A DNA stretch of 17,115 bases from Escherichia coli (GTDB taxonomy: Bacteria; Pseudomonadota; Gammaproteobacteria; Enterobacterales; Enterobacteriaceae): NCBI RefSeq assembly GCF_003334765.1, contig NZ_QOWT01000052.1; one strand, written 5' to 3'. Under the pieces are notes generated by a model. That model saw nothing but the letters and a program-made list of their open reading frames with translations, was not told the DNA's origin and did not search any database. Both the position numbers and the translations under genes were made by a program. Shown here in pieces: positions 1 through 17,115 of the stretch. The stretch's first letter is position 1. The number at the start of each line of letters is the position of its first letter.

Positions 1-77
1 GTGGCGGCCTCAGTCCGGAACAATTTGAAAACAAGAACCTCGCTTAGGCCTGTGTCCATATTACGTGGGTAGGATCA
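1..77 (-). repeat. Left copy of a perfect 77-bp terminal inverted repeat; reverse complement equals 17039..17115. Likely the terminus of an IS3-family element whose body lies outside the window.
   Basis: Reverse complement of 1..77 is identical to 17039..17115; identity stops at 78 versus 17038. Terminus reads TGATCCTACCCAC...TGGACA, an IS3-family-like end. Confidence 0.6.
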
Positions 78-283
78 CAACGTCTTCACCGGCAGCAACA
101 GCAGTGAGGCTTCCTTCCTGGTATTGTTTCTTCCACTTAAACAACAGACTGGGCTGAATTCCATGCAAACGCGCCACGTGGGACACGGTCATGCCAGGCT
201 CCATAGTCTGTTGAATAATTGCGATTTTTTCCTGAGGTGTTTTTACGTTTACGCACCTCTTTTCCTAACAAAACGCCAGCCAT
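78..283 (-). pseudogene. IS2-like orfA (insC-like), frameshifted in an A-run near 235-245 and 3'-truncated by insertion
   Basis: N-terminal residues are in one frame and the HTH region in another; the ORF terminates in the inserted repeat (..EDVV-ILPT-stop). Confidence 0.5.
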
Positions 284-374
284 CTCAAAATTAGAACTAG
301 TGTTAGACATATATCCAAGCCTATCTCTTATTTTAAGATACATCTACTGTCTGGTATTTCAGGGGGACAGCTCA
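78..374 (-). mobile_element. IS2-like (IS3 family) left-end fragment: IRL-like sequence plus orfA, cut at 77/78 by the terminal repeat element
   Basis: Minus-strand translation gives [14 protein letters not shown]..., then after a frame change [55 protein letters not shown], matching IS2 InsC/OrfA as recalled. Upstream motifs CCCCCTGAA..CCAGACA resemble the IS2 IRL. Homology ends exactly at the repeat boundary. Confidence 0.55.
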
Positions 375-574
375 ACGAATAATCACACAGCAAATAATAA
401 TGACAAACAAGAATATAACTCAAAAAAATATCCAGAATGATGATATCCTGAATATTTTGCCACTACGAATTAATCATATGAACATAATAATTTGACAATA
501 ACCACGCAAAATGTTAAAGAATTACGAACCTATATAATAGACAAAATCGTAAAATAATAGGCTGGAGATATAAG

Positions 575-2023
575 ATGCTAAAGGGCTTTGATATAACAAA
601 AGCAAAAGCACAAGAAGTAGATACAGAACTACTTAAGCGTAGAATTTCCACTGGAAAAGCCATCGCATTCACAGGTGCAGGCTTCTCACTCGGAACAAAA
701 AATGTACTAGGCTCTACCCCCCCAATGGCTGGAGAGCTAGCTAAGAAACTCAGTTTATTATGTAATCTCGAAGAATCTGAAGATTTAATGTTTGCAGCAG
801 ACGTTGCACTTGAGTACGCAGATAATATTTCAGTATTAGACTTACTTAAAGATAATTACACACTAACATCTGTTTCAGAATGTCATGAAAAAATATGTAA
901 ACTACCCTGGAAAAAATTTTTCACAACAAATTATGATAACTCTATAGAACTTGCCTGTCTGAATATAGGTAAACGTATAGAATCAGTTGACTTATCTTAC
1001 AAACCAACAAATTTTTTAAAAAAAAATAATGTTTGCCTTCATATTAATGGAAAAATTGAAAGTGCTGAACCTGAAGATTTAACCTCCAAAATAAAATTAT
1101 CAGATTCATCATACCTGTCTCCAGATTCATTTGTAAATTCTGATTGGTACTATCACTTCAAAAAAGATCTTGAAACCGCAAGTGCTATCGTATTTATGGG
1201 ATACTCCATGTATGATATGGATGTAAAAAAATTCTTGTTCGAAAATCCAGAGTTACAAGAAAAAACTTACTTCGTTGTAAGAGATGGTGCCGATTTTAAA
1301 GAAATATTCACCCTAAGAAAATATGGACATGTTTTGCCAATTGGGGTGGACAGGTTTTCAGATTTAATGAAGGATGTTCAAAAGCAATCACATGAAGATG
1401 GTGTTATCTTCACAGAAACACTAGTCAAATATGAAGTTTTCGACACACAAACAGACTTTAGAGATATTGATAGTGAGCGATTATTTCTTTACGGTGATTA
1501 TGAAATAGAAAAACTCCATGACTCTATCAGAAGAATAGAAACCATTCCGTACTTTATTAAACGCGATATAATTCCTGTTTGTCTTAACAACATTAAAAAT
1601 AATAATAACATTATTATCACTGGCGATCTGGGAAATGGAAAGTCTATAGTTTTAGAAATGTTAGCTTATGAGTTAACTGTAAATGGTTTTCACACATATA
1701 TATTACGAAATAACGATGGTGATTATGTTTCTGATCTTGATCAAATTATCAAACATGAGGGGACGGCCGTAATTATCATTGATAACTGCTCTAATCATCC
1801 GGGTTTGATAAAACATATTTTTGAAGTTAAAGCTGATAACTTAATTTATGTTTTTGCTGACAGAAACTCAAACGACATAAAATTTAATATTTCTCTTGAT
1901 TTTATAGAGCACAATATAGACTTACTATCTAGTGACGAAATCGCAAGCGCAGTAAAAATCATAGATAATTTATCTACATGGCAAAAATTTTCCGCATTAT
2001 CCACTGAGAGAAAAAAAGATTAG
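575..2023 (+). CDS. SIR2-like (SIR2_2-type) domain fused to a P-loop NTPase domain; N-terminal 482-aa segment of a longer frameshifted gene
   Basis: SIR2_2-like motifs: FTGAGFS, TTNYD, LHINGK, VFMGYSMYDMD. Walker A GDLGNGKS and Walker B-like AVIIIDN. RBS GGAG about 8 nt upstream of the ATG. AT-rich codon usage. Confidence 0.7.
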   Translation: MLKGFDITKAKAQEVDTELLKRRISTGKAIAFTGAGFSLGTKNVLGSTPPMAGELAKKLSLLCNLEESEDLMFAADVALEYADNISVLDLLKDNYTLTSVSECHEKICKLPWKKFFTTNYDNSIELACLNIGKRIESVDLSYKPTNFLKKNNVCLHINGKIESAEPEDLTSKIKLSDSSYLSPDSFVNSDWYYHFKKDLETASAIVFMGYSMYDMDVKKFLFENPELQEKTYFVVRDGADFKEIFTLRKYGHVLPIGVDRFSDLMKDVQKQSHEDGVIFTETLVKYEVFDTQTDFRDIDSERLFLYGDYEIEKLHDSIRRIETIPYFIKRDIIPVCLNNIKNNNNIIITGDLGNGKSIVLEMLAYELTVNGFHTYILRNNDGDYVSDLDQIIKHEGTAVIIIDNCSNHPGLIKHIFEVKADNLIYVFADRNSNDIKFNISLDFIEHNIDLLSSDEIASAVKIIDNLSTWQKFSALSTERKKD

Positions 2024-2301
2024 TATATGAAAAATATGACGCACAGCTATCTCTATTGCTTCTGGGATTGATAAATAGTCCAAATATAAAAACAAAAATC
2101 AAACAACAAACCGATTTAATATATTCCAATCCAGATCATAAAAAGAGCGTCTTCTGCATTTGCATTTGTGAAGTCGCTAATGTAGAACCAACATCAAGTT
2201 TAGTATCAGAAATATCAGGAACTAATGCTATTTATCATACATCACTAAGAAACTCCCCCCCCATTCAATCAAATTTTCAAAGTAAATGGAGCAACTATTA
2301 A
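2008..2301 (+). other. Middle fragment of the SIR2/NTPase gene in the +1 frame between two homopolymer frameshifts
   Basis: This frame is open from 2008 immediately after the A7 run (2011..2017) and ends shortly after the C8 run (2255..2262). Confidence 0.4.
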
Positions 2302-3019
2302 ATCAAAATCAAGCATTCTGTCATTATCTTTACTAAACAATACCTTTAGCGATATTTATGTAAGAGATGTACTCCTTGAAATTGTTGAACGTACTGACTC
2401 AATAAAAGACCAGGATATTGAAATAAAAAAAATATTTAAAGCACTATTGAGATTTCATATAGTTGAAAGAATTTTACCGAAGAATCAATCTGCACTAGAC
2501 AGATATTATGAACAGTTAAAATATAGATGCACATGGTTAATGGATAGCCCTCACTATTGGGTTCAATATGCAATGTGTCGACTATCTTTTTCAGATTATA
2601 ATAGAGCACAAAATTACCTAACCAACGCTTATCAAAAAGCAGAAACAAAAAAAGGAAGTTATCATACTGATAACATTGACACTCAACAGGCTCGTCTATA
2701 TTTAAATCAGTGTTTAGATCATAACAACAGTTCTGAGTGTTATAAACTGTTCGATAAAGCACATGCTCTTCTTGTGAAACTCCCCAATGAAGGAAGAAAG
2801 TTTAGACAAGTTCTGTTATATAAAAAAGTTTTTGATTTAAAATACCAAAGTTTCAGTAAAAAAAACAAAACTGATTTTGAACAGGCATGTAAAAAATTAT
2901 TAGATCAGACAAAACCAGATAATGTTTATCCTATAAATACTAATATGGTAAGATTCATCACCTCTGCTGAAGAGGCATTAATTGAAATATTAAACACTAT
3001 TATGCTAGAGCGAACTTAA
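2264..3019 (+). CDS. C-terminal alpha-helical (possibly TPR-like) segment of the SIR2/NTPase gene; the frame is open from 2264 although the ORF caller starts at 2447
   Basis: Same frame as 575..2023, open from just after the C8 run to the stop at 3019, followed by a strong terminator hairpin. Confidence 0.55.
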   Translation, partial: FNQIFKVNGATIKSKSSILSLSLLNNTFSDIYVRDVLLEIVERTDSIKDQDIEIKKIFKALLRFHIVERILPKNQSALDRYYEQLKYRCTWLMDSPHYWVQYAMCRLSFSDYNRAQNYLTNAYQKAETKKGSYHTDNIDTQQARLYLNQCLDHNNSSECYKLFDKAHALLVKLPNEGRKFRQVLLYKKVFDLKYQSFSKKNKTDFEQACKKLLDQTKPDNVYPINTNMVRFITSAEEALIEILNTIMLERT

Positions 3020-3027
3020 CTGTAAAA

Positions 3028-3053
3028 AGCCACCTCCTGAGGAGGTGGCTTTT
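3028..3053. terminator. Rho-independent terminator hairpin, possibly bidirectional
   Basis: Perfect 10-bp stem AGCCACCTCC / GGAGGTGGCT with a 3-nt loop, followed by TTTT and preceded by AAAA. Confidence 0.65.
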
Positions 3054-3096
3054 CAGAATCCCCCCTATAAGGATGGCAAATGTCATATTCCATTTT

Positions 3097-3468
3097 CTAC
3101 TCTAGCAACTCCATCTGCTGTTCATGTGTTTGTTCCATCTTTTCCTGGTACCTCACATATCGTCTGATAATTTCTTCGTTCCCCCCTACCGTATCAACAA
3201 AGTAACCCCTCGACCAAAAATGGTTTCCCCATAACTTCTTCCCGATATGCAGGAATCGATTGTAGAGTCTGATTGCACTGCGGTCTTTCAGCTGCCCCAT
3301 CAGAGTAGATATTGAGATTTTTGGTAGCACTATTACGACAAGATGCATATGATCTGGCTGTACATTTAACTCCAGAGCCTCGCAATCTTTTATTCCGCAA
3401 AGAATAAAGATGGTTCTGTACAGCTCCTTGCCCAATTTATCCCTCAGAATCCTAAAGCGGTACTTTAG
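3097..3468 (-). CDS. tnpA: IS200/IS605-family Y1 (HUH) transposase TnpA; N-terminus apparently disrupted (in-frame stop upstream of the conserved CKYHIV, no ATG)
   Basis: Minus-strand translation CKYHIVWTLKYR...DHMHLVV (HxH)...FWSRGYFVDTVG (catalytic Y region) matches IS200 TnpA. The ORF caller starts at an internal Met (3435). Confidence 0.7.
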   Translation of the reverse strand, partial: LKYRFRILRDKLGKELYRTIFILCGIKDCEALELNVQPDHMHLVVIVLPKISISTLMGQLKDRSAIRLYNRFLHIGKKLWGNHFWSRGYFVDTVGGNEEIIRRYVRYQEKMEQTHEQQMELLE

Positions 3469-3917
3469 CGTCCAGACTATGTGATATTTGCAACACTAAT
3501 ATACATGTGATGAACTTCTGTAAAGCCCTATATCAGTTTGTCTCCTTTTACTTGTGGTGTGTAAGCAGATATATTCAGACATGGACATTCTTCAGGCTAT
3601 AACCTTACAGGAACAATCACCACCTCCACAAGAGGTGAGGTTTTATTTTACCTGTCACTCCCAAAAGAGTATATTAATACATGAATAATGTCTTAGCATT
3701 CTATTTGGCATTCATATTAATTTAACTTCTGCACCCCTAATATTTCATTACTCTCTTTTGAATGTATGCCTGATACAGTATATGATGTTAAAAACTTAAT
3801 TGACGTTGTGTAAATAGACCCGTTTTGGTTACATACATTTTTTGAGATTCCGGAAAGAATTACCCTGTCCCAAAATCAATACAGTGCTAAATCAGAGATC
3901 TTTGTCTTTCCTGAGAC

Positions 3918-4295
3918 TTCAAAAAAATTCAGCCGGCGTCACGTCATTTAATTATGAATGCGTTCTCTCATGATTATATTTCCTGCGCCAGTAATCGAGT
4001 TTGTCTTGTGCATCTTCCAGTTTTCAGCGCCAGTGATATAAGACGGTAATTCGCCATTTGGATTGTCCGCATCCCCATAACGGTCAAACATCGTGGCGTT
4101 GACACAGTGACAGGAACCAGTGAATGTTCAGACACTCATCCCGCAGACTGCCGTTAAACGATTCAATAAACGGTTTATCTGCCAGCTTTCCGGGGGGCGA
4201 GAAGTCCATGTTCACACCGTGTTCATACGCCCCTTTATCCAGACTTTTGAGATAAACTCGCTGCCGTTGTCACCGCCACGATGTTTGACCGTTAT
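3918..4295 (-). pseudogene. IS3-family (IS2-group-like) orfB C-terminal remnant with frameshift and premature stop
   Basis: Minus-strand frames give GGDNGSEFISK, PGKLADKPFIESFNGSLRDECLNIHWFLSLEDAQDKLDYWRRKYNHERTHS, then stop, then TPAEFF: a DDE/integrase core C-terminus. Confidence 0.55.
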
Positions 4296-4327
4296 TTGCC
4301 ATTTTCATGCCCGCTAAGATACTTTCG

Positions 4328-5111
<784 letters not shown>

Positions 5112-5115
<4 letters not shown>

Positions 5116-5780
5116 AACAGCTCCTCATAGGTACTCAGTGGTCGATGTTCCACCTGACTGACCTGCTGCCAGAGCGGGGCGTGATGCTCCGGCACTGTCT
5201 GCCAGCCAGACGATGCCGGACAGAGGCGATGTGAGGCCACCAGTTTCTCATTACTGTAGATCCGCAACTCGTCATCCAGCGATATTCGTATCGATACTGG
5301 CTGACCACACAGCGCTTCGGGAACGCTGTAACGATTACCACCAACCTCGATATAGCTGTCCCAGGACACATGGCGGATGTCGAAGTAACTGGTATCGAAG
5401 TCCGTATCCGGTAACGGCTGCAGATGTTCCTGCTCCAGCGCGAAGCGCTGTTCCGGCGTTTCTTTGAACTGGCGAAGCTCCCGTTTGTCAGCCACATCGG
5501 CTATCCATTGCTCCAGTAGTTGATTAACATGAGTGAAGCTGTCGAACCTGCGGTACCGGACGAAGAAGTTCTCCTTGAGGTATTTCACCATCCGCTCAAC
5601 CTTACCTTTTGTTCTGGCCCTGCGTGGACGGCATGCCCGTGGCAGGAAGTTATAGTGGTCGGCCAGCAACAGGAATCCGGAGTTGAACACGACTTTCCCG
5701 TTGTTATTCTTCAGCACCGCAGCCTTCTGGTTATCAACCAGCACCGTTTTCACACAACCACCGAATTTGATCCCTGAAAA
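5112..5780 (-). pseudogene. istA: IS21-family istA, 5'-truncated (C-terminal part only)
   Basis: Translation ..GIKFGGCVKTVLVDNQKAAVLKNNNGKVVFN... continues in frame upstream of the called start to a stop near 5780. Confidence 0.7.
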
Positions 5781-6018
5781 CTGTCAGCGCTGCGAGGACA
5801 TGGCTGCTTAAAAAAAGAACAAATGGTAGTGTCCGCTATTGCCAGTACACCTCAGATTCTGGGGATAACTGCGAAAAGAATATGTGCCAGGAAAGTCGGC
5901 TCCCGGGAAAAAGACCGCTGGCGGCGCAGCTGCTGGATACGAAAGCTGAGCTGAAAGGATCCCGGGAGGACGTCCGTAAACTTCAGTCCCTGGCCCGTCA
6001 TGACGGGAAGGTGAAAAA

Positions 6019-6660
6019 GTGAATGCGGACACCTGGACCCGCCTGCAGGCCTTCCGACATGCTCTGGAGCTGACTTCCTGTGAGGCTTCTCTCACCGCCG
6101 GGTATGATCACCTGAAGGATTTCCCGGCCGGTTGCAGCGAGCTGGCCAGCCAGACGCTGACTGATTATCTGACGGAAGACGGCAGCAACCTGTACTCCTG
6201 TATTGTCGGTATGCAGTGGGATAATGGTCCTGGCAGATACGGCCACGTCATTGCCGCCCCTGCCAGGGACTATATCGACCTGACCCTTGATCAGTTTCCA
6301 GGCTATCATAACCGGATTGTGGCAGAGCCCGTTGAGTCCGGCGGACAGCTCGCGGCAGACCTCAACAGGGAGCCTGCCATCAGTACAGCTGATGGAATAG
6401 TGGCCAGCGCATCAGATAAGGTTAATTACATTACTGAACAGAAAAATCGCCAGCCAATGGTGATCATTACAGAATGTTACAAACTGATCAGAATGACGGC
6501 AAGATTTATACCAATGTGCCAGTCATCTCAACTCTTCCAGCACCAGATATTCCCTCGCTTATTTATCATTTCAGACGTTGGCTCCTGCAGTTTGTCCAGG
6601 AACACCTTAGATCGTTTAGCTACTGACTGGAAGGTGACACTGTCCGTCCTGTCGCTATAG
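6019..6660 (+). CDS. Hypothetical protein; the C-terminal third may be spurious read-through
   Basis: 213-aa ORF with a GTG start overlapping the stop of a small upstream ORF; GC-rich backbone-like codon usage; no recognisable motifs. Confidence 0.35.
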   Translation: MNADTWTRLQAFRHALELTSCEASLTAGYDHLKDFPAGCSELASQTLTDYLTEDGSNLYSCIVGMQWDNGPGRYGHVIAAPARDYIDLTLDQFPGYHNRIVAEPVESGGQLAADLNREPAISTADGIVASASDKVNYITEQKNRQPMVIITECYKLIRMTARFIPMCQSSQLFQHQIFPRLFIISDVGSCSLSRNTLDRLATDWKVTLSVLSL

Positions 6661-7239
6661 GGCTTGATATAAACCAGGCAGGCAAGGGATCTGGTTAACA
6701 CCTTTCCTTCCATAAAGTGTTTGAAGATCCAGAGATACGTATCCACAAGCTCCAGCCCTGTACTCAGTGTCCCCGACTGGAAGACCTGCGGTTCAGCTGG
6801 TATTTCCGTTACATCCATGACCGGTGTCTGCGCAGCAGTGCCTGTCATCAGGATATTCATGGAGCCAGTCTGTATGCGCCTCTGGCGTTGAAACAAACAT
6901 ATGAAGTGTATTTCGGATATGACTGTACGCTCAGGAAGTACGGCAGATTCCGTCAAAAATTACCTGTAAAGACAGACTTCAGAAAAAACGGTGCTCGCCG
7001 CAGACCGGTGACCGGGCGAAGCCCGCGAACCGGCGAGGAAGCGCAATGGATCTGTAATCACAGTGAGCAGGTACGCCCTGAAGCCTTCATAATCGGTAGT
7101 GTATGCTGTTTTTCCGGAATGATTTATCCACATATCCAGAGGCCCGATCCAGTAAATAGATCCATGAATGATCAATAAAGGATCCATTAAAGATCCCCAT
7201 ATCGCTACAAACCTTGTCACTCATGGGCCGGGACCACGA

Positions 7240-7345
7240 TCACATAAGCTGTGGCATGTTACTGATAAACTGTAATATGCTAATGATAAGCTGTATTCAG
7301 TAATGCATATACTGAAGTAAGCTAATGACATAAACTATGGTCAGT
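7240..7345. repeat. Iteron-like repeats upstream of repA (RepFIB-type origin repeats)
   Basis: Repeated ATAAGCTGT / ATAAACTGTA-type motifs, at least five copies. Confidence 0.5.
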
Positions 7346-7499
7346 ACGCCAGACTCTGTTGTTAAATACAGACTGCAGGTTTTTCTTCAGTCAGTTAGCG
7401 GGGCTCTGACACACGATTTGCTGTTTATTCTTTTACTGTCCACAGGCAGGAGGCTTTCTGGAAAACGAAAATTCAGACATCAAAAAACTGTTCGGCGAG

Positions 7500-8477
7500 G
7501 TGGATAAGTCGTCCGGTGAGCTGGTGACACTGACACCAAACAATAACAACACCGTACAACCTGTGGCGCTGATGCGTCTGGGCGTCTTTGTACCGACCCT
7601 TAAGTCACTGAAGAACAGTAAAAAAAATACTCTGTCACGCACCGATGCCACGGAAGAACTGACGCGTCTTTCCCTGGCCCGTGCAGAAGGATTCGATAAG
7701 GTTGAGATCACCGGCCCCCGGCTGGATATGGATAACGATTTCAAGACCTGGGTGGGGATCATTCATTCCTTTGCCCGCCATAACGTGATTGGTGACAAAG
7801 TTGAACTGCCTTTTGTCGAGTTTGCAAAACTGTGTGGTATACCCTCAAGCCAGTCATCACGCAGGCTGCGTGAGCGCATCAGCCCTTCCCTGAAACGCAT
7901 TGCCGGTACCGTGATCTCCTTTTCCCGCACCGATGAGAAGCACACCCGGGAATACATCACCCATCTGGTACAGTCAGCCTACTACGATACTGAACGGGAT
8001 ATTGTTCAGTTACAGGCTGATCCCCGCCTTTTTGAACTGTACCAGTTTGACAGAAAGGTCCTTCTTCAGCTTAAGGCGATTAATGCCCTGAAGCGACGGG
8101 AGTCCGCCCAGGCACTTTACACCTTTATAGAGAGCCTGCCCCGGGATCCGGCACCGGTATCGCTGGCGCGGCTGCGTGCACGCCTCAATCTGAAGTCTCC
8201 TGTATTTTCCCAGAACCAGACGGTCAGACGGGCAATGGAGCAGTTGCGCGAGATTGGATATCTTGATTACACGGAGATCCAGCGGGGGCGGACAAAACTC
8301 TTCTGCATTCACTACCGGCGTCCCCGGTTAAAAGCACCGAATGATGAGAGTAAGGAAAATCCGTTGCCACCTTCACCTGCGGAAAAAGTCAGTCCGGAGA
8401 TGGCGGAGAAGCTTGCCCTGCTTGAAAAACTGGGCATCACGCTGGATGACCTGGAAAAACTCTTCAAATCCCGCTGA
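7500..8477 (+). CDS. repA: Plasmid replication initiator RepA, RepFIB-type
   Basis: 325-aa ORF beginning [30 protein letters not shown]..., recalled as IncFIB RepA; flanked on both sides by iteron clusters; GTG start. Confidence 0.8.
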
Positions 8478-8478
8478 A

Positions 8479-8747
8479 CATAAACTGTAGTCAGTGAAGA
8501 GTGCTCCTTTACTGACTACAGCTTATATTATCAGGTGCAGTGAGTGGTCTGCTCACTGCAGTTTATATTCAGTTTCCTGCAGTGCTGCCTGTGGCTGAGC
8601 TGCCATCTGCCTGTCCCTTACGTGAGTCACCCCGTAACCTGATGCTGAGGCATTTCTCCCTTTATAAAACATGGTTTACTCACTACAGCTTATCTACCTG
8701 CTCCAGCTTATGTTATGTCTGTTCTGCTGACCACTGCTTATATAAGG
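8479..8747. repeat. Iteron-like repeats downstream of repA
   Basis: Repeated ACTACAGCTTAT / CTGCAGTTTATATT / CCACTGCTTATATA motifs in both orientations. Confidence 0.5.
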
Positions 8748-8755
8748 AAGTGCCG

Positions 8756-9496
8756 TTACTTCAGGGGAGGCAGTGTACGCAGGATCTCCGCAGCATCCCG
8801 CCCGTCACCTGTGAAAGGCACTGCCAGCGTGGCAGCCATATCCAGTGCAAACACTCTGGTATAAACCTCCATAGAACGTGGATCCCTGTGACCAGCCAGT
8901 GCCTGGATGACTTTCCGGGGCTGGCGGTGATAGAGCATGTGCATGATATAGCTGTGCCGGAAGGTGTGTGGTGTGACCGGAATCGAAAAGTGCACCCCGT
9001 CAGCTTCGGCCCGCTTCACTGCCTGTTTCAGCCAGTTCCGCATCGTTTCATCCGTCACAGCCCATAACGGTGCACGGCGCCGGGGCCGGGTGGTGATCAT
9101 CCAGCTCTCCATCTGCCTGACATAGCTTATATCCGTCAGCGGGACCAGGCGGACTTCATCTTTTGGAGGGCGCCCGCGTCGCGCACGCACTTTTTCGGAC
9201 AGGATCCGCACAAACGGTCTTACTCCATCCAGGTCAAATGATTCCGGTGTCAGCATCCGGGCTTCGCCAATACGCATTCCGGTATTCCAGAGGGTGGCGA
9301 ACAGCATATGGTGACGCTGATCCGGCATATAGAAAAGAAGGGCACTCACTTCCGGGGCCAGCAGGTAGGCCGGTGTGGCCCCCGTGGAAGTGGCCATTCT
9401 TCTCAGGGAGAGCGCTGTTGCAAAATCCACCCCTGGCGCAATGGGTAACAGGGAGACGCGTTCTGGTGAATTCTGCAGGGGAATGACATTGTTCAT
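8756..9496 (-). CDS. int: Tyrosine site-specific recombinase (phage-integrase family)
   Basis: 246 aa with C-terminal [12 protein letters not shown]...[16 protein letters not shown], matching the R-H-R-Y catalytic region (LGH...Y motif). Confidence 0.8.
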
Positions 9497-9712
9497 GAGT
9501 TATTTTTCACGTAGCACACGCACTGTTTATGGATACAGTTATTCTGACCTGAACGCACGGATCCTTCCACGACAATAAATCGCAGCGCGCGGATCCTTTT
9601 GTTTGCTTATCACGCATTATTGCGGGTAAAACCAAATACGTAAAGGCGCGTTTTGCCGCAGGGATCCTGTCTTAAGCCAGTCATGGCGCGGGCTGAGAGC
9701 TGGTTTGCCGTT

Positions 9713-9858
9713 TTTGGGAGAATTGGGGTAATGCCAGGACAAACAGGATCGAACCAGAAGGGGGAGGGTGCAGAGAAGGAGAGGAAGCGCTACGTGAATT
9801 CTGACCTGGTACACCCCTGTAACCCTGTCTGTTTCCACGTAGCGCAATGCGGTTACTG
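9713..9858 (+). repeat. Repeat A: about 146-bp element, diverged direct copy of repeat B; contains a 10-bp inverted repeat GCGCTACGTG (9787..9796) / CACGTAGCGC (9836..9845)
   Basis: Start TTTGGGAGAATTGGGGTAAT and the core CGCTACGTGAATTCTGACCTGGTACA are near-identical to repeat B. Confidence 0.5.
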
Positions 9859-9859
9859 A

Positions 9860-10109
9860 CTACTGCCAGTTGAGATGACGCCCGGCATCCTGATGCTGAC
9901 TTAAAATACGGATAATAATAATATCTGTATCAGTCTGAATAAAATAAAGCATATGCCGTTCAACGGGCAGTGCGAAGATATCTTCCACCAGTTCAGGCCG
10001 GGGAGTGCCGATATTATTATCACTCATAACCTGAAAAATGCCGGCACCCGTAATACCAGATATCCTCCAGATCCTGACTGGCTTTAGGTGTGAGTTTAAC
10101 GGTTTTCAC
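9860..10109 (-). pseudogene. parE: ParE/RelE-family toxin, apparently frameshifted near 10050..10055
   Basis: GTG start overlaps the parD stop; N-terminal frame reads VKTVKLTPKASQDLEDIWYY.. then stop; a second frame reads ..PELVEDIFALPVERHMLYFIQTDTDIIIIRILSQHQDAGRHL, a ParE-like C-terminus. No ORF of 60 aa or more was called here. Confidence 0.5.
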
Positions 10110-10362
10110 CGGAAGCCCTCGTACCAGCCTTAACTTTTTTCAGGAACGCGTCCTTTTCCCACGCCACAGGTTCGCCGCTGCTCAGGCCTTCTGCCAGTAA
10201 ATCCCGCAGGGCCTGGAGACGTGACTCTGCCTGTTTCTCGCGCAGGAGACGAAGTGACTCGCGAATCACTTCACTCTGAGTACGATAATCACCTGATTCT
10301 ATGAGAGATTCAATGAATTCACGGAGTTCATCTCCGAGATCCACTGTCATTGTTCTGGCCAT
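10096..10362 (-). CDS. parD: ParD-family (ribbon-helix-helix) antitoxin
   Basis: 88 aa, MARTMTVDLGDELREFIESLIESGDYRTQSEVIRESLRLLREKQ...; RBS GAGG upstream; operon with the downstream toxin. Confidence 0.75.
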   Translation of the reverse strand: MARTMTVDLGDELREFIESLIESGDYRTQSEVIRESLRLLREKQAESRLQALRDLLAEGLSSGEPVAWEKDAFLKKVKAGTRASGENR

Positions 10363-10376
10363 ATTAAAGCCTCAAT

Positions 10377-10399
10377 ATTGTAAGTTTAAATCTTACAAT
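10377..10399. promoter_or_regulatory. Palindromic putative operator ATTGTAAG-N7-CTTACAAT, 15 bp upstream of the parD start
   Basis: 8-bp inverted arms around an AT-rich spacer, overlapping a candidate -10 on the minus strand. Confidence 0.45.
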
Positions 10400-10439
10400 C
10401 AGTTTATTCGATACTCAAGGGCGAGTCCAGTACTGAACA

Positions 10440-10577
10440 TTTGGGAGAAATGGGGTAATACCCAAGATAGACCAAAAAGGGAAGGGAGAAGTAAAGAAGA
10501 AGGTTCGCTACGTAAATTCTGACTTGGTACAAACCTCTATAAAAAAGAAATTTTTCATGTAACACATTTGGGTACTG
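10440..10577 (+). repeat. Repeat B: about 138-bp diverged copy of repeat A, flanked by direct 9-bp CCCAGTACT (10427..10435 and 10592..10600)
   Basis: Alignable to repeat A over its whole length at roughly three-quarters identity by eye. Confidence 0.5.
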
Positions 10578-10641
10578 CCTCCCAGTAAAGGGAGACAGCA
10601 TCCCAGTACTATAATTGTACTATATAATATAATGTAGGTGA

Positions 10642-12579
10642 TTAAAATAAATTATCTAATCCGAGCAAACTTTCTTTTTCCTTTTTTATCATGTTGAGAT
10701 GATTTAGTGATTTTAAATAAATATAATTATACATATCTTCAACCAAGTTTTCTAATACTAGGAAAACCCTGTTTTTTACACCTGCCTGTGTTAATAATTT
10801 ATCTATAAGCATACTGTTTTTATCGTTTATGATTCCATCAGATTTTATTTTATCGAGGCCTGAAATTATCTTTAAACATGAAGGTGTCGTAATTGCATTG
10901 TCAAAAATAATGTCATGCAAAGAGTATGTTGATAATTTTTCTATATCAGAGAAGGCGAGGACATTCAGAATGTTATCATTAAATGGACCGATTGATACAT
11001 CGTGCATAGATTCAAGTTTATTGTTATTTGATTTTCTATCTTTACGTAGTTCTTTATTTTGAACAATAACTCTCGCATCACCGATTAGTTTATAATAGAA
11101 ATTTTCAGCTAATGTGCTCGCTGAAAAATTCTCTTCTTTAAAACCAATCTCTTGCATTAACGGAATGATTAACTCTTCCGTTGTATTTTCCATGTCTATG
11201 TGGTTTAAAAAAACCGCAGTATTCAGCATAATAGAGTTATTTTTTAGTTCCTTTACCAAACTCAGCAATATCTTACTTTTTATACTAGATGCGCTGTTTT
11301 TAATGAATTCAGCCGCATGATACTCTTGAATTGTTTTATGGACAAATGTAAATATTTCGGCGCCATCTCTTCTGATCAAACCTGTGACATCGATATAGTC
11401 ATTAATAAGATCTTCGGCAAAAGTATCAGAATAATTGAGCCCCAAAACTTTAAATGATTTTTTAGTGATATTTTTTAAGTTATCCCATGATAATTGGGAT
11501 GAACTTTTTAGCGATATGTAACATAAAGCACAAAATATTTCTTTTGATTCACTAATTGAGAGGTTTGTTTTTCTATGCCTTTTATAGAAATTTTTTGTTT
11601 TATCATGGCCTTCAAATAGTATATTAAATATTCTATTGTAAAATTCTCTTGCATTTTTAGGCATTGAATCGAGATGCTTTTCACAAACACAAAGCAGTAC
11701 AGCAAGAATTGGAGTATTAATTGAAGAAAGCAATTGTTTATTTTTCTTAAGCGCTGCTATAAGTTGATCAGCTGACTCCTTTGGTAAAAAATTACCTATT
11801 ATGGAAAAAACATCTTTCTCTGTTAGTGGTTCAACATGATAATTATTTATTCCTGCAGTAGTGCATATTTCTGTTCCAGGCCGAGACGTTGATATTAATT
11901 GAGTCTGAAAAGAATCATTTAAATGCAATATTTCTTTTAAAATAGTTTCTCTAATATCAGGGGATATTTCATCAAAACCATCTAGTAGTAATATAATTTT
12001 TTTACTTTTCAGTAACCCCTTTAGGTCAGCATTAGTGCAGTTTAATTCGAGAGTAGTTAATGTTTTTATTAAACTATCTTGTATTGAATTGTTTTCCAAG
12101 TTTCTAAGATCAAAAAAGAATGGTATTTTATTAATTTTTGAATTATTACTTAAAATAGCTAGGAATATTTTTCTTAAAATTGTTGTTTTCCCTTGTCCAG
12201 CAGCGCCAATTATATTTAATATATTTTCATTTTGAATACAAAAATCATTATTAATTAAAAGGTCTTCATTTGTACGGTTGTTTTTTACCGTGAGTGGATG
12301 ATAAAATTCATCTATAAAAGCATCATCATTTAAATTATATAAAGTTCTTACTGACAAGTATCTTTTAATACATAAATCAAAATAATGAGTGAAAGTATCT
12401 TTCTTCAATATTTGTTCAATAAGTACTTTCGCATTATCAGTTCCATGTTTCCACTTTTGTGAAACTACTGAATTTAACAATTCGTAAGTTGATTTTGTTA
12501 AAGATTCACTAAAAGTTTCTACCATTTTATTGGTGGCCACAATACCCAGTGCAGCAGCAGATATTGTTAACGGTTCCAT
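10642..12579 (-). CDS. NACHT-domain NTPase (bacterial NACHT / STAND family), 645 aa
   Basis: Walker A GAAGQGKTT; NACHT-type Walker B ILLLDGFDE; sensor-1 ISTSRP; RBS AAGGAG 6 nt upstream of the ATG; AT-rich. Confidence 0.85.
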   Translation of the reverse strand: MEPLTISAAALGIVATNKMVETFSESLTKSTYELLNSVVSQKWKHGTDNAKVLIEQILKKDTFTHYFDLCIKRYLSVRTLYNLNDDAFIDEFYHPLTVKNNRTNEDLLINNDFCIQNENILNIIGAAGQGKTTILRKIFLAILSNNSKINKIPFFFDLRNLENNSIQDSLIKTLTTLELNCTNADLKGLLKSKKIILLLDGFDEISPDIRETILKEILHLNDSFQTQLISTSRPGTEICTTAGINNYHVEPLTEKDVFSIIGNFLPKESADQLIAALKKNKQLLSSINTPILAVLLCVCEKHLDSMPKNAREFYNRIFNILFEGHDKTKNFYKRHRKTNLSISESKEIFCALCYISLKSSSQLSWDNLKNITKKSFKVLGLNYSDTFAEDLINDYIDVTGLIRRDGAEIFTFVHKTIQEYHAAEFIKNSASSIKSKILLSLVKELKNNSIMLNTAVFLNHIDMENTTEELIIPLMQEIGFKEENFSASTLAENFYYKLIGDARVIVQNKELRKDRKSNNNKLESMHDVSIGPFNDNILNVLAFSDIEKLSTYSLHDIIFDNAITTPSCLKIISGLDKIKSDGIINDKNSMLIDKLLTQAGVKNRVFLVLENLVEDMYNYIYLKSLNHLNMIKKEKESLLGLDNLF

Positions 12580-12867
12580 TTTTGCTCCTTCAAAAAATTA
12601 TAAAGTGACTGTCTAAATTCATTTAGAATAAAAAGGATAATTACTGATTCTTGATATGGAAGTTATAAAGTGGTTCATATTAAGAAATTCCAAAACCTAA
12701 AGTGTTTGTAACTATATAAAAAATAGATAATAAATCAAGGTTGTTGACATAAAATTTGACACGACGAACTGAAACTCAATGTGGACTAAGGAAAGCACTT
12801 ACCCTATTGTAAAGCATTGATTTAAAATGTTATTTTTTATATTTAACATAATCTTTGTTATGCGCAC

Positions 12868-13570
12868 TAAGGGTGTAACAGCAAAGTTGTAATGTCCGCC
12901 TTGGGCTAAGTTAAGATGTCCGGCGTGTATAATCAAGTAAGGATTACCATGACGGCTCTCGCAGCGGAGTTTTTCACTTTGGATGAAGTTAACCGACTCA
13001 AGATTATTCAGGACGTCATCGACCGGCGTCTGACAACACAGATGGCAGCGCAGCGGCTTGGTATCTCCGACCGCCAGTGCCGTCGTCTGCTTGCGCGTTA
13101 TCGTGAAGATGGTCCGCTTGGCATGACCAGCCGCGTGTCGAAATCACTCACTGTGCAGTACGACAAAGTGCTTTACCTCATTGAAGACAATGAGTTCAGT
13201 CGTCGGGCGATTGGTAAATACATTGATGTCTGGCATTACCCTGACGGACATAAAGAGCTCCGGCTTAATGGCGTATCAATTCCCTACTCCACCTATGACA
13301 AACTGTCTGAAATCGATCAGGGTGCCATTGTGGACAATAAACGTCTTGGGCGTGCGCTGGAGATGGCGCAACTTGTGCAGGCCGAACGGGATAATAACCG
13401 GTCACAATCAGTGCCATCCGGTGACGGCCCTTCACGCAGGCGCAAAGCCCCTACGACGAAGAAATCCCAGCGTTCTTTGGACCAGGACGATATGTTCAAT
13501 GCACTTGTAAAACTTCAGACACGAGCTGAGGAGATTTTTGGTGAACGCAACCAAAAATGATGTTTTGATA
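12868..13570 (+). mobile_element. ISNCY/IS481-like IS remnant with an internally deleted transposase gene
   Basis: Left-end sequence AAGGGTGTA... is shared with the full copy at about 15675; the gene lacks the catalytic core. Confidence 0.5.
12949..13560 (+). pseudogene. Internally deleted DDE transposase derivative: N-terminal HTH fused in frame to the C-terminal domain (about 280 aa of catalytic core missing)
   Basis: Residues ..NRLKIIQDVIDRRL..GPLGM and ..LTVQYDKVLYLIEDNEFSRRAIGKYIDVWHYPDGHKELRLNG.. align to both ends of the 415-aa transposase at 15794..17041. Extended -10 TGTATAAT and RBS AAGGA precede the ATG at 12949. Confidence 0.6.
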
Positions 13571-13611
13571 CGAACATTTCAATGGTCAATAGATAGAGTG
13601 GAGATGGGCAG

Positions 13612-14658
13612 ATGATAACGTTTTCTATGGATGAAAGTGGCTATACGGGTTATGACTTACTCCACAAAGAGCAAAAATTCCAAGGCGCGTCATCAATATT
13701 AATAAACCATGATGACGCCAGTCGTCTGATAAAAGAATATTTCCCCAAACTTCAAGCCGATGAATTGAAGTACAGCTCGCTGAAAAGAAGAGATTCCAAC
13801 CGCAAGCCATTATTTGAATTGCAAAAGCATCTCTTATCTAATTACCCATGTATAACATGCGTAGGTGATAAACGCTTTTTACTAATTCTTATGTTCATCG
13901 ATTATGCTGTTGAACCATTCTATTATGATTTTGGGATTAATCTTTATGAGGATGGCGGTAACTTCTCAATGGCATCAATGGTGTATTACGTTGGACCAGC
14001 GTATTATGGCTCTGCCTTTGATGATGTTCTGCTTCAGTTTCAAAATGCTATGAAAGAAAAAACATTAGATTCAGTGAGTTTGCTAATAAGCAAAATAAGG
14101 AGGCTTGACTGGCAAAGGTTAAAAGAGTTTTTTGGTCCTTTGGCATTTAACCACCCAGATTGTATTGATGCCATCATGACTGATGGAATTAGCACTGATG
14201 CCTCATTTACTATTTTAAATGCATTAATTTCTCGCACGGAAATGATGTCCTCTGGAGAGTATGCAATTGAGCATGATCGTTCTAAAAATCTGCTAACTTA
14301 CAATGAACGCCTTAACTTTTTGATCAATTGTGATAAGGAAGGAGAGTTTAAACATTCCGAGATAGCAACTATCTCATTCCCACTAAACCTTAAAAAAGTC
14401 TATCAAATTGATTCGAAAGAAAGCCCAAGCGTGCAATTGTGTGATGTTCTTATAGGTGCATGTATTGAATCAGTTTATCAATTAATGGACTCTAAGGTAC
14501 TCAATCAAAATTCCGTTCTTTCACTTTACCAAGATAGCCAGTTAATACATTTCATACCTGATATAGATTTTGAAGGACAGAAAAAATTTAGGAAAGGCAG
14601 TCAAAGTGAGGAGTATCTTACGTTTATTCAAAATGAAATCTACTCTAGTAAACTTTAA
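13612..14658 (+). CDS. DUF3800-like protein (uncharacterised), 348 aa
   Basis: N-terminal FSMDESGYTG (DESG motif) and C-terminal VQLCDVLIGA (QxxD-like motif), as recalled for DUF3800; RBS GGAG; AT-rich. Confidence 0.6.
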   Translation: MITFSMDESGYTGYDLLHKEQKFQGASSILINHDDASRLIKEYFPKLQADELKYSSLKRRDSNRKPLFELQKHLLSNYPCITCVGDKRFLLILMFIDYAVEPFYYDFGINLYEDGGNFSMASMVYYVGPAYYGSAFDDVLLQFQNAMKEKTLDSVSLLISKIRRLDWQRLKEFFGPLAFNHPDCIDAIMTDGISTDASFTILNALISRTEMMSSGEYAIEHDRSKNLLTYNERLNFLINCDKEGEFKHSEIATISFPLNLKKVYQIDSKESPSVQLCDVLIGACIESVYQLMDSKVLNQNSVLSLYQDSQLIHFIPDIDFEGQKKFRKGSQSEEYLTFIQNEIYSSKL

Positions 14659-14663
14659 AAAAA

Positions 14664-14684
14664 GGCTCTGAAAATCAGAACCTT
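14664..14684. terminator. Imperfect hairpin between the convergent genes (possible bidirectional terminator)
   Basis: GGCTCTGA-AAA-TCAGAACC stem with one mismatch, A-run upstream. Confidence 0.3.
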
Positions 14685-14893
14685 ATCGCACCACCAGACA
14701 TAGAAATGATTCGTGAAGCTATTTTATACAGAACCAAAAACACAAAGGCCAAAACAGTCATGATATCTAATACCATAGGCATTACCTCCACTAACGTATT
14801 CAAGACAAACGCTTTATACCCGCATCAGTCCGTAGACAGGCATCTGTTCGTCAGTTTGTGGATTTCTATGGGTGGTGAGACCGGGTAGAGACA

Positions 14894-15538
14894 TCATACC
14901 TGTTTTCTTAGAAGCTGGTCAATATAGCTGATCGTGTGAAATTCACGTTCGATTTTCATACAAACATTTGGCAACTGTTCGATAAGAAAGTTTTCATCGA
15001 AGCGATCTAGAAGGTACGTGAGGGTAATAGTATCAATTTTATTCAATTTTCTATGTAAAACTGAAGAACGCCTCACAAAATCGTTTTTCCTTAACTCTTG
15101 AATAACATCGATCAAAATAGGGTTGAATAATTCTTTTTCTGGAAAGGACTTGTAAATTTTCGAATCAATAATTTGAGAAGGATCTAAGCGGTTAATTAAA
15201 TTATTACTGCTAACTATGTAGCACTTATCAATCATCAAACCTTCCGTTTTGCAACGGTCTAAATCACAAGCGTTTATTATACATTCTTTAAATACAACAT
15301 GTCGCAGGCTCCCGCCTCTAAAAAGGACTCCTCTTAATAAAGAGGATTGGAAAAGACTGCCAGTAAAGTTACACCATTTCAATGAAGCACCAATAAAAGA
15401 CGTGTTCGTGAATTTTGACTGAAAAAAATTTGAATGGTAACTGTGTGTCTTATTGAAATTTTTATTTATAAAATTCCTACTCGCAACATCACGATTATTG
15501 TAGCTGAAAGCATTTTTGCTCTTCTTATTCCTTGCCAT
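14894..15538 (-). CDS. Pentapeptide-repeat protein: N-terminal pentapeptide-repeat region plus a C-terminal domain of unknown function, 214 aa
   Basis: Residues about 20..95 show a 5-residue periodicity (RNFIN KNFNK .. SNFFQ SKFTN TSFIG ASLKW CNFTG SLFQS SLLRG VLFRG GSLRH VVFKE) with F/L at the centre position. Confidence 0.6.
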   Translation of the reverse strand: MARNKKSKNAFSYNNRDVASRNFINKNFNKTHSYHSNFFQSKFTNTSFIGASLKWCNFTGSLFQSSLLRGVLFRGGSLRHVVFKECIINACDLDRCKTEGLMIDKCYIVSSNNLINRLDPSQIIDSKIYKSFPEKELFNPILIDVIQELRKNDFVRRSSVLHRKLNKIDTITLTYLLDRFDENFLIEQLPNVCMKIEREFHTISYIDQLLRKQV

Positions 15539-15674
15539 ATTTATATCTCAGACTTTATAAGTCTAATGATATTCCCACGAATTGCTTTCCCTGTGAAGTT
15601 TTTGTTGACCAAGCAAAGCAGTTTATGGACATTTGAACTTTGCCCTACCCCGGACATCTGAACTTAGCTTTGAC

Positions 15675-17038
15675 AAAGGGTGTAGAGGCTCAATGCTAAT
15701 GTCTATTTGTGGCTCATTGGAATGTCCAGGCTATAGTTTCTCAGATCCCTATGTCTAGACAACGACTCACTTTTTCCTGATGAGGAGTTTTCTATGGCTA
15801 TAAATGACGCCGGAATGTTCACCGTGAAAGAAATCAATCGCCTCAAAATCCTTCAGGATGTCATCGATCGCAATATCCGTCCTGGACAGGCTGCCGAAAT
15901 GCTGGTCATCACGCCACGTCATTGCAGCCGTCTGCTCAAACGTTATCGCCAGTATGGGCCGCTTGGCATGAACAACCAGAGTCGTGGCCGCACTGGTAAC
16001 CGTCTGTTGCCAGCGTCACTGACAGATCAGGCACTCAGTATAATCCGGGAGCACTACCGTGATTTTGGCCCCACGCTAGCGCGGGAAAAGCTGGAGGAAG
16101 TTCACGGTCTGGTCCTTGGAAAGGAAACCATCCGACGTCTCATGATAAAGGCCGGACTCTGGATTCCCCGCAGACAACGCGCACCGAAAATTCATCAGCC
16201 TCGTTACCGGCGTCCTTGTACTGGCGAGCTGATACAAATTGATGGCTGCGACCACCACTGGTTTGAAAACCGGGGTCGACCCTGTACTGCCCTGGTCTAT
16301 GTTGACGATGCCACCAGTCGCCTGATGCACCTGCTGTTTGTGAAATCTGAGTCCACATTTACCTATTTTGAAGCTACACGTGGCTATATCGAGAAATACG
16401 GTAAACCGATGATCCTCTACAGCGATAAAGCCAGCATATTCAGAGTCAATAATAAGCACGCCACCACCGGCCCCGGCGAAACCCAGTTTGCCAGGGCCAT
16501 GCGCTGCCTTAATATTACTCCTTTGTGTGCTGAAACCAGCCAGGCAAAAGGCCGCGTTGAACGTGCTCATTTGACACTTCAGGACCGACTCGTTAAGGAG
16601 CTCAGGCTTAAGGGGATCTGTACAATAGAAGCGGCCAATGCATTTGCAGAAGAATACATGGCGGATTATAACCGTCGCTTTGCCAAAGAACCCTTGCATG
16701 ATTTTAACGCGCACCGGCCGCTGGCATTAGACGATGACCTTGATGCAGAATTTACCTGGCGAGAGCCTCGCCGGGTATCAAAAAATCTGACTGTACAATA
16801 CGATAAAATGCTCTATCTGATTGAGGACAACGAGTACAGTCGAAGAGCCATCGGCAAGTATATTGATGTCTGGCATTATCCTGACGGACATAAGGAGCTG
16901 CGACTAAATGGCGTGCTGCTGCCCTACTCCACCTATGACCGGCTTTCTGAGGTTGATCCCGTCGCCATTGTAGATAACAAGAGACTTGGCCATGTGTTGG
17001 ATGTTGCCCGTCAGGTCCAGAGAAAACGGGACAATAAT
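15675..17038 (+). mobile_element. ISNCY/IS481-like insertion sequence, 3'-truncated by insertion of the terminal-repeat element
   Basis: Left-end homology with the 12868 copy; the transposase reading frame is cut at 17038/17039. Confidence 0.6.
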
Positions 17039-17041
17039 TGA
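15794..17041 (+). CDS. DDE transposase (integrase-core type, ISNCY/IS481-like), 415 aa, C-terminally truncated by about 45 aa relative to the homolog at 12949..13560
   Basis: N-terminal HTH, central core (..QIDGCDHHWF..YVDDATSRLM..) and C-terminal DVWHYPDGHKELRLNG; RBS GAGGAG. The stop codon TGA is supplied by the first bases of the 77-bp repeat. Confidence 0.8.
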   Translation: MAINDAGMFTVKEINRLKILQDVIDRNIRPGQAAEMLVITPRHCSRLLKRYRQYGPLGMNNQSRGRTGNRLLPASLTDQALSIIREHYRDFGPTLAREKLEEVHGLVLGKETIRRLMIKAGLWIPRRQRAPKIHQPRYRRPCTGELIQIDGCDHHWFENRGRPCTALVYVDDATSRLMHLLFVKSESTFTYFEATRGYIEKYGKPMILYSDKASIFRVNNKHATTGPGETQFARAMRCLNITPLCAETSQAKGRVERAHLTLQDRLVKELRLKGICTIEAANAFAEEYMADYNRRFAKEPLHDFNAHRPLALDDDLDAEFTWREPRRVSKNLTVQYDKMLYLIEDNEYSRRAIGKYIDVWHYPDGHKELRLNGVLLPYSTYDRLSEVDPVAIVDNKRLGHVLDVARQVQRKRDNN

Positions 17042-17115
17042 TCCTACCCACGTAATATGGACACAGGCCTAAGCGAGGTTCTTGTTTTCAAATTGTTCCG
17101 GACTGAGGCCGCCAC
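17039..17115 (+). repeat. Right copy of the 77-bp terminal inverted repeat (IS3-family-like terminus)
   Basis: Identical to the reverse complement of 1..77. Confidence 0.6.

Follow-up and report, generated by a model that had tools for sequence, protein, structure and literature searches.

The 17,115-nt stretch of Escherichia coli DNA analysed here (contig NZ_QOWT01000052.1; hereafter the window) begins and ends with perfect inverted copies of the same 77 nucleotides, and this 77-mer is the end of the common insertion sequence (IS) IS3. The window very probably derives from an E. coli pAA-type IncFIB/FII virulence plasmid, a real molecule in which two complete, inverted IS3 copies surround a 16,961-bp segment that includes the RepFIB replicon. 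Closed plasmids show this segment in either orientation relative to the backbone. The length of 77 is the k-mer size of an assembler and not a biological property of the element, and the window is best read as one unitig of a k=77 de Bruijn graph assembly of short reads. The phenomenon is already known (IS3, IS-bracketed inversion, and k-mer contig ends); the rearrangement is real but ordinary and IS-mediated, with no new mechanism. The features on which this account is built are as follows.

1-77, plus strand: right-end (IRR) 77 nt of the left-hand IS3 copy, the remainder of which lies outside the window (identity to full IS3; start of the k=77 unitig)
78-17038, no strand: IS3-bracketed segment, 16,961 bp, found in both orientations relative to the backbone (closed-plasmid comparison, junction records)
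17039-17115, minus strand: right-end (IRR) 77 nt of the right-hand IS3 copy, with IS3 on the minus strand (identity to full IS3; k=77 unitig)
7500-8477, plus strand: RepFIB replication initiator of the RepB/Rep3 family (every related record is annotated "RepB family plasmid replication initiator protein"; Pfam Rep3_N)

The repeated ends belong to IS3

A preliminary description of the window had reported perfect reverse-complementary ends of the IS3-family type, and a repeat search followed by a scripted recheck bears this out. Positions 1-77 and 17039-17115 are reverse complements over all 77 nt (100% complementary), a perfect inverted pair for which the chance expectation in 17,115 nt is about 6e-39. 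Inward of the arms, 13 of 40 positions agree between the two sides, which is the chance level. The stop codon that the repeat was said to supply to a transposase gene is also present: the open reading frame at 15794-17041 ends in the TGA (17039-17041) with which the right arm begins.

The end proved to be that of IS3 itself. The 77-mer corresponds to positions 1182-1258 of the 1,258-bp IS3, its last 77 nt at the IRR end, and is identical in records L001, L003, L004, and L005. The IRR tip of IS3 falls at window positions 77 and 17039, and this tip (TG...) forms the inner edge of each arm, facing the segment. The terminal inverted repeats of IS3 are imperfect: the left end (IRL; TGATCTTACCCAG...) and the right end (TGATCCTACCCAC...) match at 28 of 39 positions, and at 36 of 77 over the longer span. 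Because the element's own two ends match no better than this, a perfect 77-nt inverted repeat has to be the same end of two facing copies.

The full flanking IS3 copies, which lie outside the window, are 1,258 bp long and carry the RefSeq annotation "programmed frameshift", being joined from two pieces. They match Pfam HTH_Tnp_1, HTH_21, rve, rve_2, and rve_3, and they have the size, the orfA/orfB frameshift, the helix-turn-helix (HTH) and DDE domains, and the 5'-TG...CA-3' termini of the IS3 family. The name IS3 follows the RefSeq/PGAP label "IS3-like element IS3 family transposase", used as a proxy for the ISfinder reference; 4,084 records match at 99% or more. Near-full IS3 occurs in 3,817 of 5,426 complete E. 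coli genomes, at a median of 3 places per genome. In its 77-mer, frameshift, HTH_Tnp_1 and rve domains, and TG...CA tips the element agrees with IS3 of E. coli, and the element itself shows no differences from it.

The segment occurs in both orientations in finished plasmids

We searched the window by megablast against PLSDB and all complete RefSeq E. coli genomes. These matches identify it as an IncFIB plasmid region, and PLSDB replicon typing likewise gives IncFIB. At least 80% of the window is covered in only 2 of 20,395 E. coli records and in 0 PLSDB records, and the two share the same pAA backbone. They are pANT_425 (NZ_JBQGLE010000005.1, 86,145 bp, from urine, Brazil) and plasmid 2 of isolate AF58 (NZ_OZ547039.1, 82,534 bp, from blood, UK). 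The whole window is present in each, with 3-4 differences that are mostly single-base indels. The two belong to the pAA type of enteroaggregative E. coli plasmids and carry aggR, aap, aatPABCD, aggDCBA, and RepFIB and RepFII replicons.

Each closed plasmid has exactly two full IS3 copies, 1,258 bp each, 100% identical and inverted. In both, the layout is IS3(+), the 16,961-bp segment, then IS3(-), with the IRR ends inward. The two inverted copies of one IS that had been placed just outside the window are thus seen at full length in finished plasmids.

The order in pANT_425 is aminotransferase/cyd, IS3, window (1 to 17115), IS3, vapCB/ccdAB, and that in AF58 plasmid 2 is ccdBA/vapBC, IS3, window (1 to 17115), IS3, aminotransferase/cyd. 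By whole-plasmid BLAST, the 19,477-bp block of IS3, segment, and IS3 is inverted between the two plasmids (one mismatch, one gap); the remaining DNA is collinear at 99.4-100% identity. Beyond the inversion, pANT_425 has a Tn3/TEM-1 insertion and AF58 has an additional IS1414 copy next to umuC. The bases next to all four IS3 tips are unchanged between the two orientations. These plasmids therefore have what defines an invertible segment, namely long, near-identical inverted repeats and both orientations in collinear molecules with breakpoints inside the repeats, and the inverted isomer that had been anticipated for an inversion-prone segment exists.

How the segment may invert

Homologous recombination between the two identical, inverted 1,258-bp IS3 copies would flip the segment, and with it the RepFIB replicon, with respect to the other plasmid DNA. 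Taking place as a reciprocal exchange inside IS3, the flip would change no unique base and break no gene. Unchanged bases beside the tips are what is expected of reciprocal exchange inside the repeat. Given the identity over 1,258 bp and these unchanged junction bases, RecA-type recombination by the host is the most likely route.

An inversion made by the transposase is the alternative that fares best, although we consider it improbable. One-step intramolecular transposition in trans would create the second, inverted IS copy and invert the intervening DNA in the same event. IS26 and Tn4401 are documented to use this pathway, which leaves one duplication split, in inverted form, between the two IS copies (PMC4471558). 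The inversions bracketed by those elements resemble the present case in having two identical inverted IS copies and intervening DNA in either orientation in close plasmids (PMC4471558). In the IS26 cases, however, one-step replicative transposition is indicated by the split inverted duplication, whereas the IS3 segment has no duplication left and both of its isomers have two copies, which points to homologous exchange. The two isomers differ only in orientation, and their junction bases are identical.

The IS3 pair is flanked by AAC and CTT next to the IRLs, and by CAA and ATT next to the IRRs. All pairings of these four flanks, direct and inverted, at 3 and 4 bp, were tried, and none gives a target-site duplication, which also argues against a transposase-made inversion. 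Elsewhere, IS3 leaves 3-bp duplications at simple insertions, in contrast to the two copies that flank the segment without them; a clean GTA at a simple insertion in L013 and GAC in pSTEC711_5 served as positive controls for the duplication test. Since duplications are absent at the window's copies and present for IS3 in other places, a later rearrangement is indicated and not a different element. The one split GAC pair, in pSTEC711_5, is compatible with either model. As general background, IS3-family elements transpose via a circular copy (copy-out-paste-in) and not via cointegrates, a further point against the transposase as the agent of inversion.

It is very doubtful that the IS3 pair is a reversible switch with a phenotype, for example through the orientation of RepFIB relative to RepFII and the partition loci, or through an outward promoter in the IS3 end driving different cargo, with IS3 excision "locking" one state.

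The segment as part of the plasmid backbone

Window positions 77-9751 align collinearly with pECC-1470_100, a plasmid free of IS3 that also has a vapBC module upstream. For this reason we regard the segment as native plasmid backbone that was later bracketed by IS3, and not as imported cargo. The term composite-transposon-like, used in the preliminary description, suits the layout, in which a 17-kb cargo-like segment stands between two copies of one IS, but does not extend to its origin: the unit lacks a duplication, is restricted to one backbone, and has a native left half.

That the whole unit of IS3, segment, and IS3 was a composite transposon that moved into the plasmid in one piece, bringing the replicon and the defence-type genes, is thus quite unlikely, and less probable than the transposase-made inversion. 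No direct duplication surrounds the unit, the 3-bp outer flanks being AAC and AAG on one strand, whereas the L013 control shows its GTA duplication. The whole unit was found in two records of one backbone only, and not in unrelated contexts. Collinearity of the left half with pECC-1470_100 argues in the same direction. The polarity of the IS3 copies would also be unfavourable. Copy-out-paste-in transposition of the IS3 family joins one IRL and one IRR, whereas the outward ends of this unit are two IRLs and its IRRs face inward. Likeness to composite transposons of the Tn10/Tn5 type is therefore one of layout only (IS, cargo, IS, inverted). The unit described here differs from them in having no flanking duplication, in being confined to one backbone, and in that its cargo is the plasmid's own replicon region.

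Four junction types in independent records

The two orientations involve four junctions between the backbone and the segment. For each of them we identified records, from independent projects, that cross a full IS3.

Junction A, vapC-IS3-IS2-like remnant: AP028871, CP056358, CP145100, AF58, L029
Junction B, vapC-IS3-ISNCY: CP088797, pANT_425, L019, L021
Junction C, aminotransferase-IS3-IS2-like remnant: pANT_425, L034
Junction D, aminotransferase-IS3-ISNCY: CP057477, CP061102, AF58, L022, L024-L026

The A/D arrangement is commoner and has the same gene order as the IS3-free relative pECC-1470_100 (vapBC ... IS2-like ... SIR2). On these two grounds it is probably the older state.

These junctions also bear on whether the segment might have a single natural orientation, the other being a mis-orientation in one finished assembly. 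Short reads alone cannot orient a segment bracketed by repeats, but reads that span one 1.26-kb IS3 are sufficient to do so, and contigs of independent projects cross full IS3 in all four junction types. An error of this kind is accordingly very unlikely.

The arm length is set by the assembler

The two flanking IS3 copies in the closed plasmids are identical over all 1,258 bp, and the similarity of the arms therefore extends beyond 77 nt. The earlier statement that identity stops abruptly inside the two truncated genes is correct on the inward side, where agreement falls to the chance level given above; the figure of 77, however, is set by where the window stops, and cannot be kept as an exact property of the element. 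For a simulation, we constructed de Bruijn graphs of both closed plasmids and took the unbranched path that contains the RepFIB gene. The k=77 unitig from pANT_425 is 17,115 bp long, starts with GTGGCGGCCTCAGTCCGGAA, and ends with the reverse complement of its start. It reproduces the first and last 20 nt of the window. Other values of k give other lengths.

Simulated unitig, pANT_425, k=55: 17,071 bp
Simulated unitig, pANT_425, k=77: 17,115 bp
Simulated unitig, pANT_425, k=99: 17,159 bp
Simulated unitig, pANT_425, k=127: 17,215 bp

Because IS3 is a multi-copy repeat, the assembler halts at the first 77-mer that lies wholly inside IS3, and the outcome is two perfect inverted arms of 77 nt. The k=127 counterpart of the arm is found in L038, a 55.6-kb contig of another assembly (GCA_054478315.1), whose positions 1-127 are 127 nt inside the same IS3 end. 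In SPAdes assemblies with k = 21, 33, 55, and 77, the opening and closing 77 bp of contigs have been reported to coincide (PMC8767329; see also PMC5671560 and PMC11528492). The window is like these cases in that its arm equals k (77) and starts at a repeat boundary. The usual case reported is a direct repeat that marks a circular contig, whereas the terminal identity of the window is inverted, because both contig ends enter the same end of the collapsed repeat.

The remaining alternative, that the window is a complete, discrete 17-kb element, such as a large transposon or linear replicon, and the 77-bp repeats its genuine terminal inverted repeats, agrees with a window that starts and ends exactly with the repeat, but it is refuted by the closed circular plasmids, which continue past both ends as full IS3, and by the simulation, in which arm length tracks k (and is 127 nt in another assembly), and with the IS tip (TG...) at the inner edge of the arms, opposite to a transposon's own ends, its probability is negligible.

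Several points weigh against our account of a k=77 unitig from a plasmid segment inverted by homologous recombination. The k=77 assembly of the window is inferred from the exact match of the simulation, and homologous recombination from repeat identity and the junction bases. Junction C is present in only two records, the two orientations come from different isolates and not from one culture, and the sequencing technology of the two closed assemblies could not be verified.

Two practical consequences follow. A perfect inverted or direct terminal repeat at contig edges with a length equal to a common k (55, 77, 99, or 127) should be read as entry into a collapsed repeat and not as a feature of the DNA. 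In addition, the RepFIB region of pAA-type virulence plasmids of enteroaggregative E. coli lies between two inverted IS3 copies and exists in both orientations, which matters for plasmid typing, for the scaffolding of short-read assemblies, and for the comparison of such plasmids.

IS genes truncated at the IS3 tips

At each end of the segment, the IS3 tip adjoins an incomplete gene of another IS.

78-283, minus strand: remnant of an IS2-like orfA of the IS3 family (N-terminal HTH part), cut at the IS3 tip (translation; RefSeq "transposase, incomplete")
15794-17041, plus strand: ISNCY-family transposase gene, 415 of 466 codons, with its stop from the IS3 tip (NF033594 transpos_ISNCY_2, E=1e-143, 479 bits)

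Insertion had been proposed to have truncated both genes. The breakpoints do lie at the IS3 tips, and uninterrupted versions occur elsewhere. The IS2-like sequence continues in pECC-1470_100 (...AGCAGGAA/CAACGTC), with about 67% DNA identity to annotated IS2, and an intact ISNCY gene of 1,401 nt is present in L007, where the sequence runs on past the equivalent of window position 17038. The proposal is nevertheless incomplete. We sought the distal halves of the IS2-like and ISNCY genes across the two closed plasmids, and they are absent, save for a 94.7%-identical fragment of another IS2-like copy. With the distal halves gone and no duplication at the flanks, two simple insertions cannot explain the truncations, and a later deletion or recombination is required. 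Each junction is thus the product of an IS3 insertion and, after it, of IS3-associated deletion or of recombination or exchange with further copies.

In pCss165Kan an empty-site continuation follows vapC (AGCCCGTATACGGGC...); the same continuation is absent from the window's plasmids. LR890350 and CP063685 were considered as preserved cases of the primary IS3 insertion in the ISNCY gene and rejected, as they represent independent IS3 insertions beside an intact ISNCY gene.

IS3-less versions of the junctions

In public contigs the same junctions also occur without IS3, in eight different versions, at positions equivalent to window 78-90 and 17038. Their sources are NCBI isolate assemblies (including a 117-kb contig), metagenome scaffolds of the European Nucleotide Archive (ENA), and Logan.

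IS3-less, A context: L032, L033
IS3-less, C context: L030, L035, L037
IS3-less, D context: L020, L023, L028
Footprint positions: L020 11246-11270; L023 11188-11200; L028 11246-11260; L030, L032, L033, L035, and L037 approximately 5440-5536

At these junctions 0-20 nt of the IS3 tip are kept, neither deletion endpoint is more than about 20 nt from the IS3 tips, and there is microhomology of 2-6 nt. Examples of the joins are TGATCCTACCCACGTAATAT/AGACAAGG and GGGACTCTT/CACCGG. Collapse during assembly was rejected as their origin, given eight junctions, four pipelines, no Ns, and microhomologies at the joins. They look like footprints of recurrent IS3 excision.

The excision was possibly mediated by the IS-excision enhancer IEE, by analogy with the excision of IS3-family elements via transposase-made breaks and microhomology-mediated joining (PMC9943667; bioRxiv 10.1101/2023.06.07.543989). 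The footprints resemble those of IEE in having endpoints near IS3 tips and 2-6 nt of microhomology, a likeness of junction sequences, for which transposase-independent slippage is an alternative.

On the aminotransferase side, the flank of the IS3 IRL (L005 25296-25336, outside the window) reads AAGAGTCCCTCTTCCCTAATATAGACAAGGCGTTAGTGAGC and resembles the IRR of IS3 (TGATCCTACCCACGTAATATGGACACAGGCCTAAGCGAGG). Two nucleotides (2 nt) separate this relic of an IS3-like right end from the IRL tip, so that it stands head-to-tail with the present IS3. In three of the excision footprints, the relic is the sequence to which the IRR tip is joined.

Independent IS3 events in related plasmids

IS3 has also inserted at other positions in relatives of the window's plasmid. 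One such site is whole in the window.

6783-6785, no strand: GAC target triplet of an independent IS3 insertion in pSTEC711_5 (split in pSTEC711_5, whole in the window)

The window is uninterrupted at 6774-6794 (CGACTGGAAGACCTGCGGTTC). In pSTEC711_5 (L003 4820-6077 and 14297-15554) the site is split, with ...GAAGAC abutting the IRR of one IS3 and the IRL of the other abutting the reverse complement of GACCTGCGGTTC. We interpret this division of GAC between two different inverted IS3 copies in pSTEC711_5 as the footprint of a separate IS3-bracketed inversion. The other IS3 of pSTEC711_5 meets the IS2-like remnant at a point 12 bp farther out than that of the window does (IRR/CAGAAGCAGGAA CAACGTC), and the offset indicates two different IS3 junctions 12 bp apart in the same IS2-like remnant.

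A vapBC-IS3 neighbourhood is present in many IncF plasmids, many of them of the enterotoxigenic E. coli (ETEC) type, and their IS3 copy aligns at about 94% overall. The IS3 of pCss165Kan (L015 3859-5154) is 82 nt more distant from vapC than that of the window's lineage, so the region downstream of vapC was hit by IS3 more than once.

Other genes of the segment

A variety of further genes and gene remnants were identified in the segment, including the following.

575-3019, plus strand: SIR2/nSTAND3-type gene, broken by two frameshifts, -1 at about 2010 and +1 (extra C) at 2255 (ThsA/STALD and Dsr2 matched weakly)
9860-10362, minus strand: intact ParD antitoxin gene, with an adjacent RelE/ParE toxin gene annotated as frameshifted in the closed plasmids (annotation)
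10642-12579, minus strand: NACHT-domain NTPase gene, a defence-type domain (PADLOC PDC-S60, 1e-14; partial NCBIfam EruA match far below the cut-off; Pfam NACHT)

In the cargo, PADLOC and NCBIfam scans picked up defence-type domains, but none of the known defence systems was complete above the cut-off. The SIR2/nSTAND3 gene is out of frame for about 245 nt between its two frameshifts, with multiple stops. An intact gene of 2,445 nt is present in L002, L006, and L008; among the named records it is intact in AP028871, pECC-1470_100, and CP145100. The two closed plasmids share the -1 change and differ from the window at 2255 and 2890; these differences are possibly long-read homopolymer errors on their side.

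The segment also encodes a tyrosine recombinase, a DUF3800 protein, and a pentapeptide-repeat protein, and it includes IS remnants of IS200, IS21, and two ISNCY elements. The second ISNCY transposase remnant (12916-13560) is in direct orientation to that at 15794-17038, with 74-75% DNA identity. The DUF3800 and pentapeptide-repeat genes sit between the two ISNCY remnants, the diverged one being upstream. Beside an IS21-like istB remnant is a 28-nt inverted repeat (4077-4104 and 4268-4295) that is 96% complementary, with its arms 163 nt apart. Several plasmid matches begin at 4267/4268, which indicates a recombination or IS boundary, and the boundary at this repeat (4077-4295) is probably the end of an IS21-family element.

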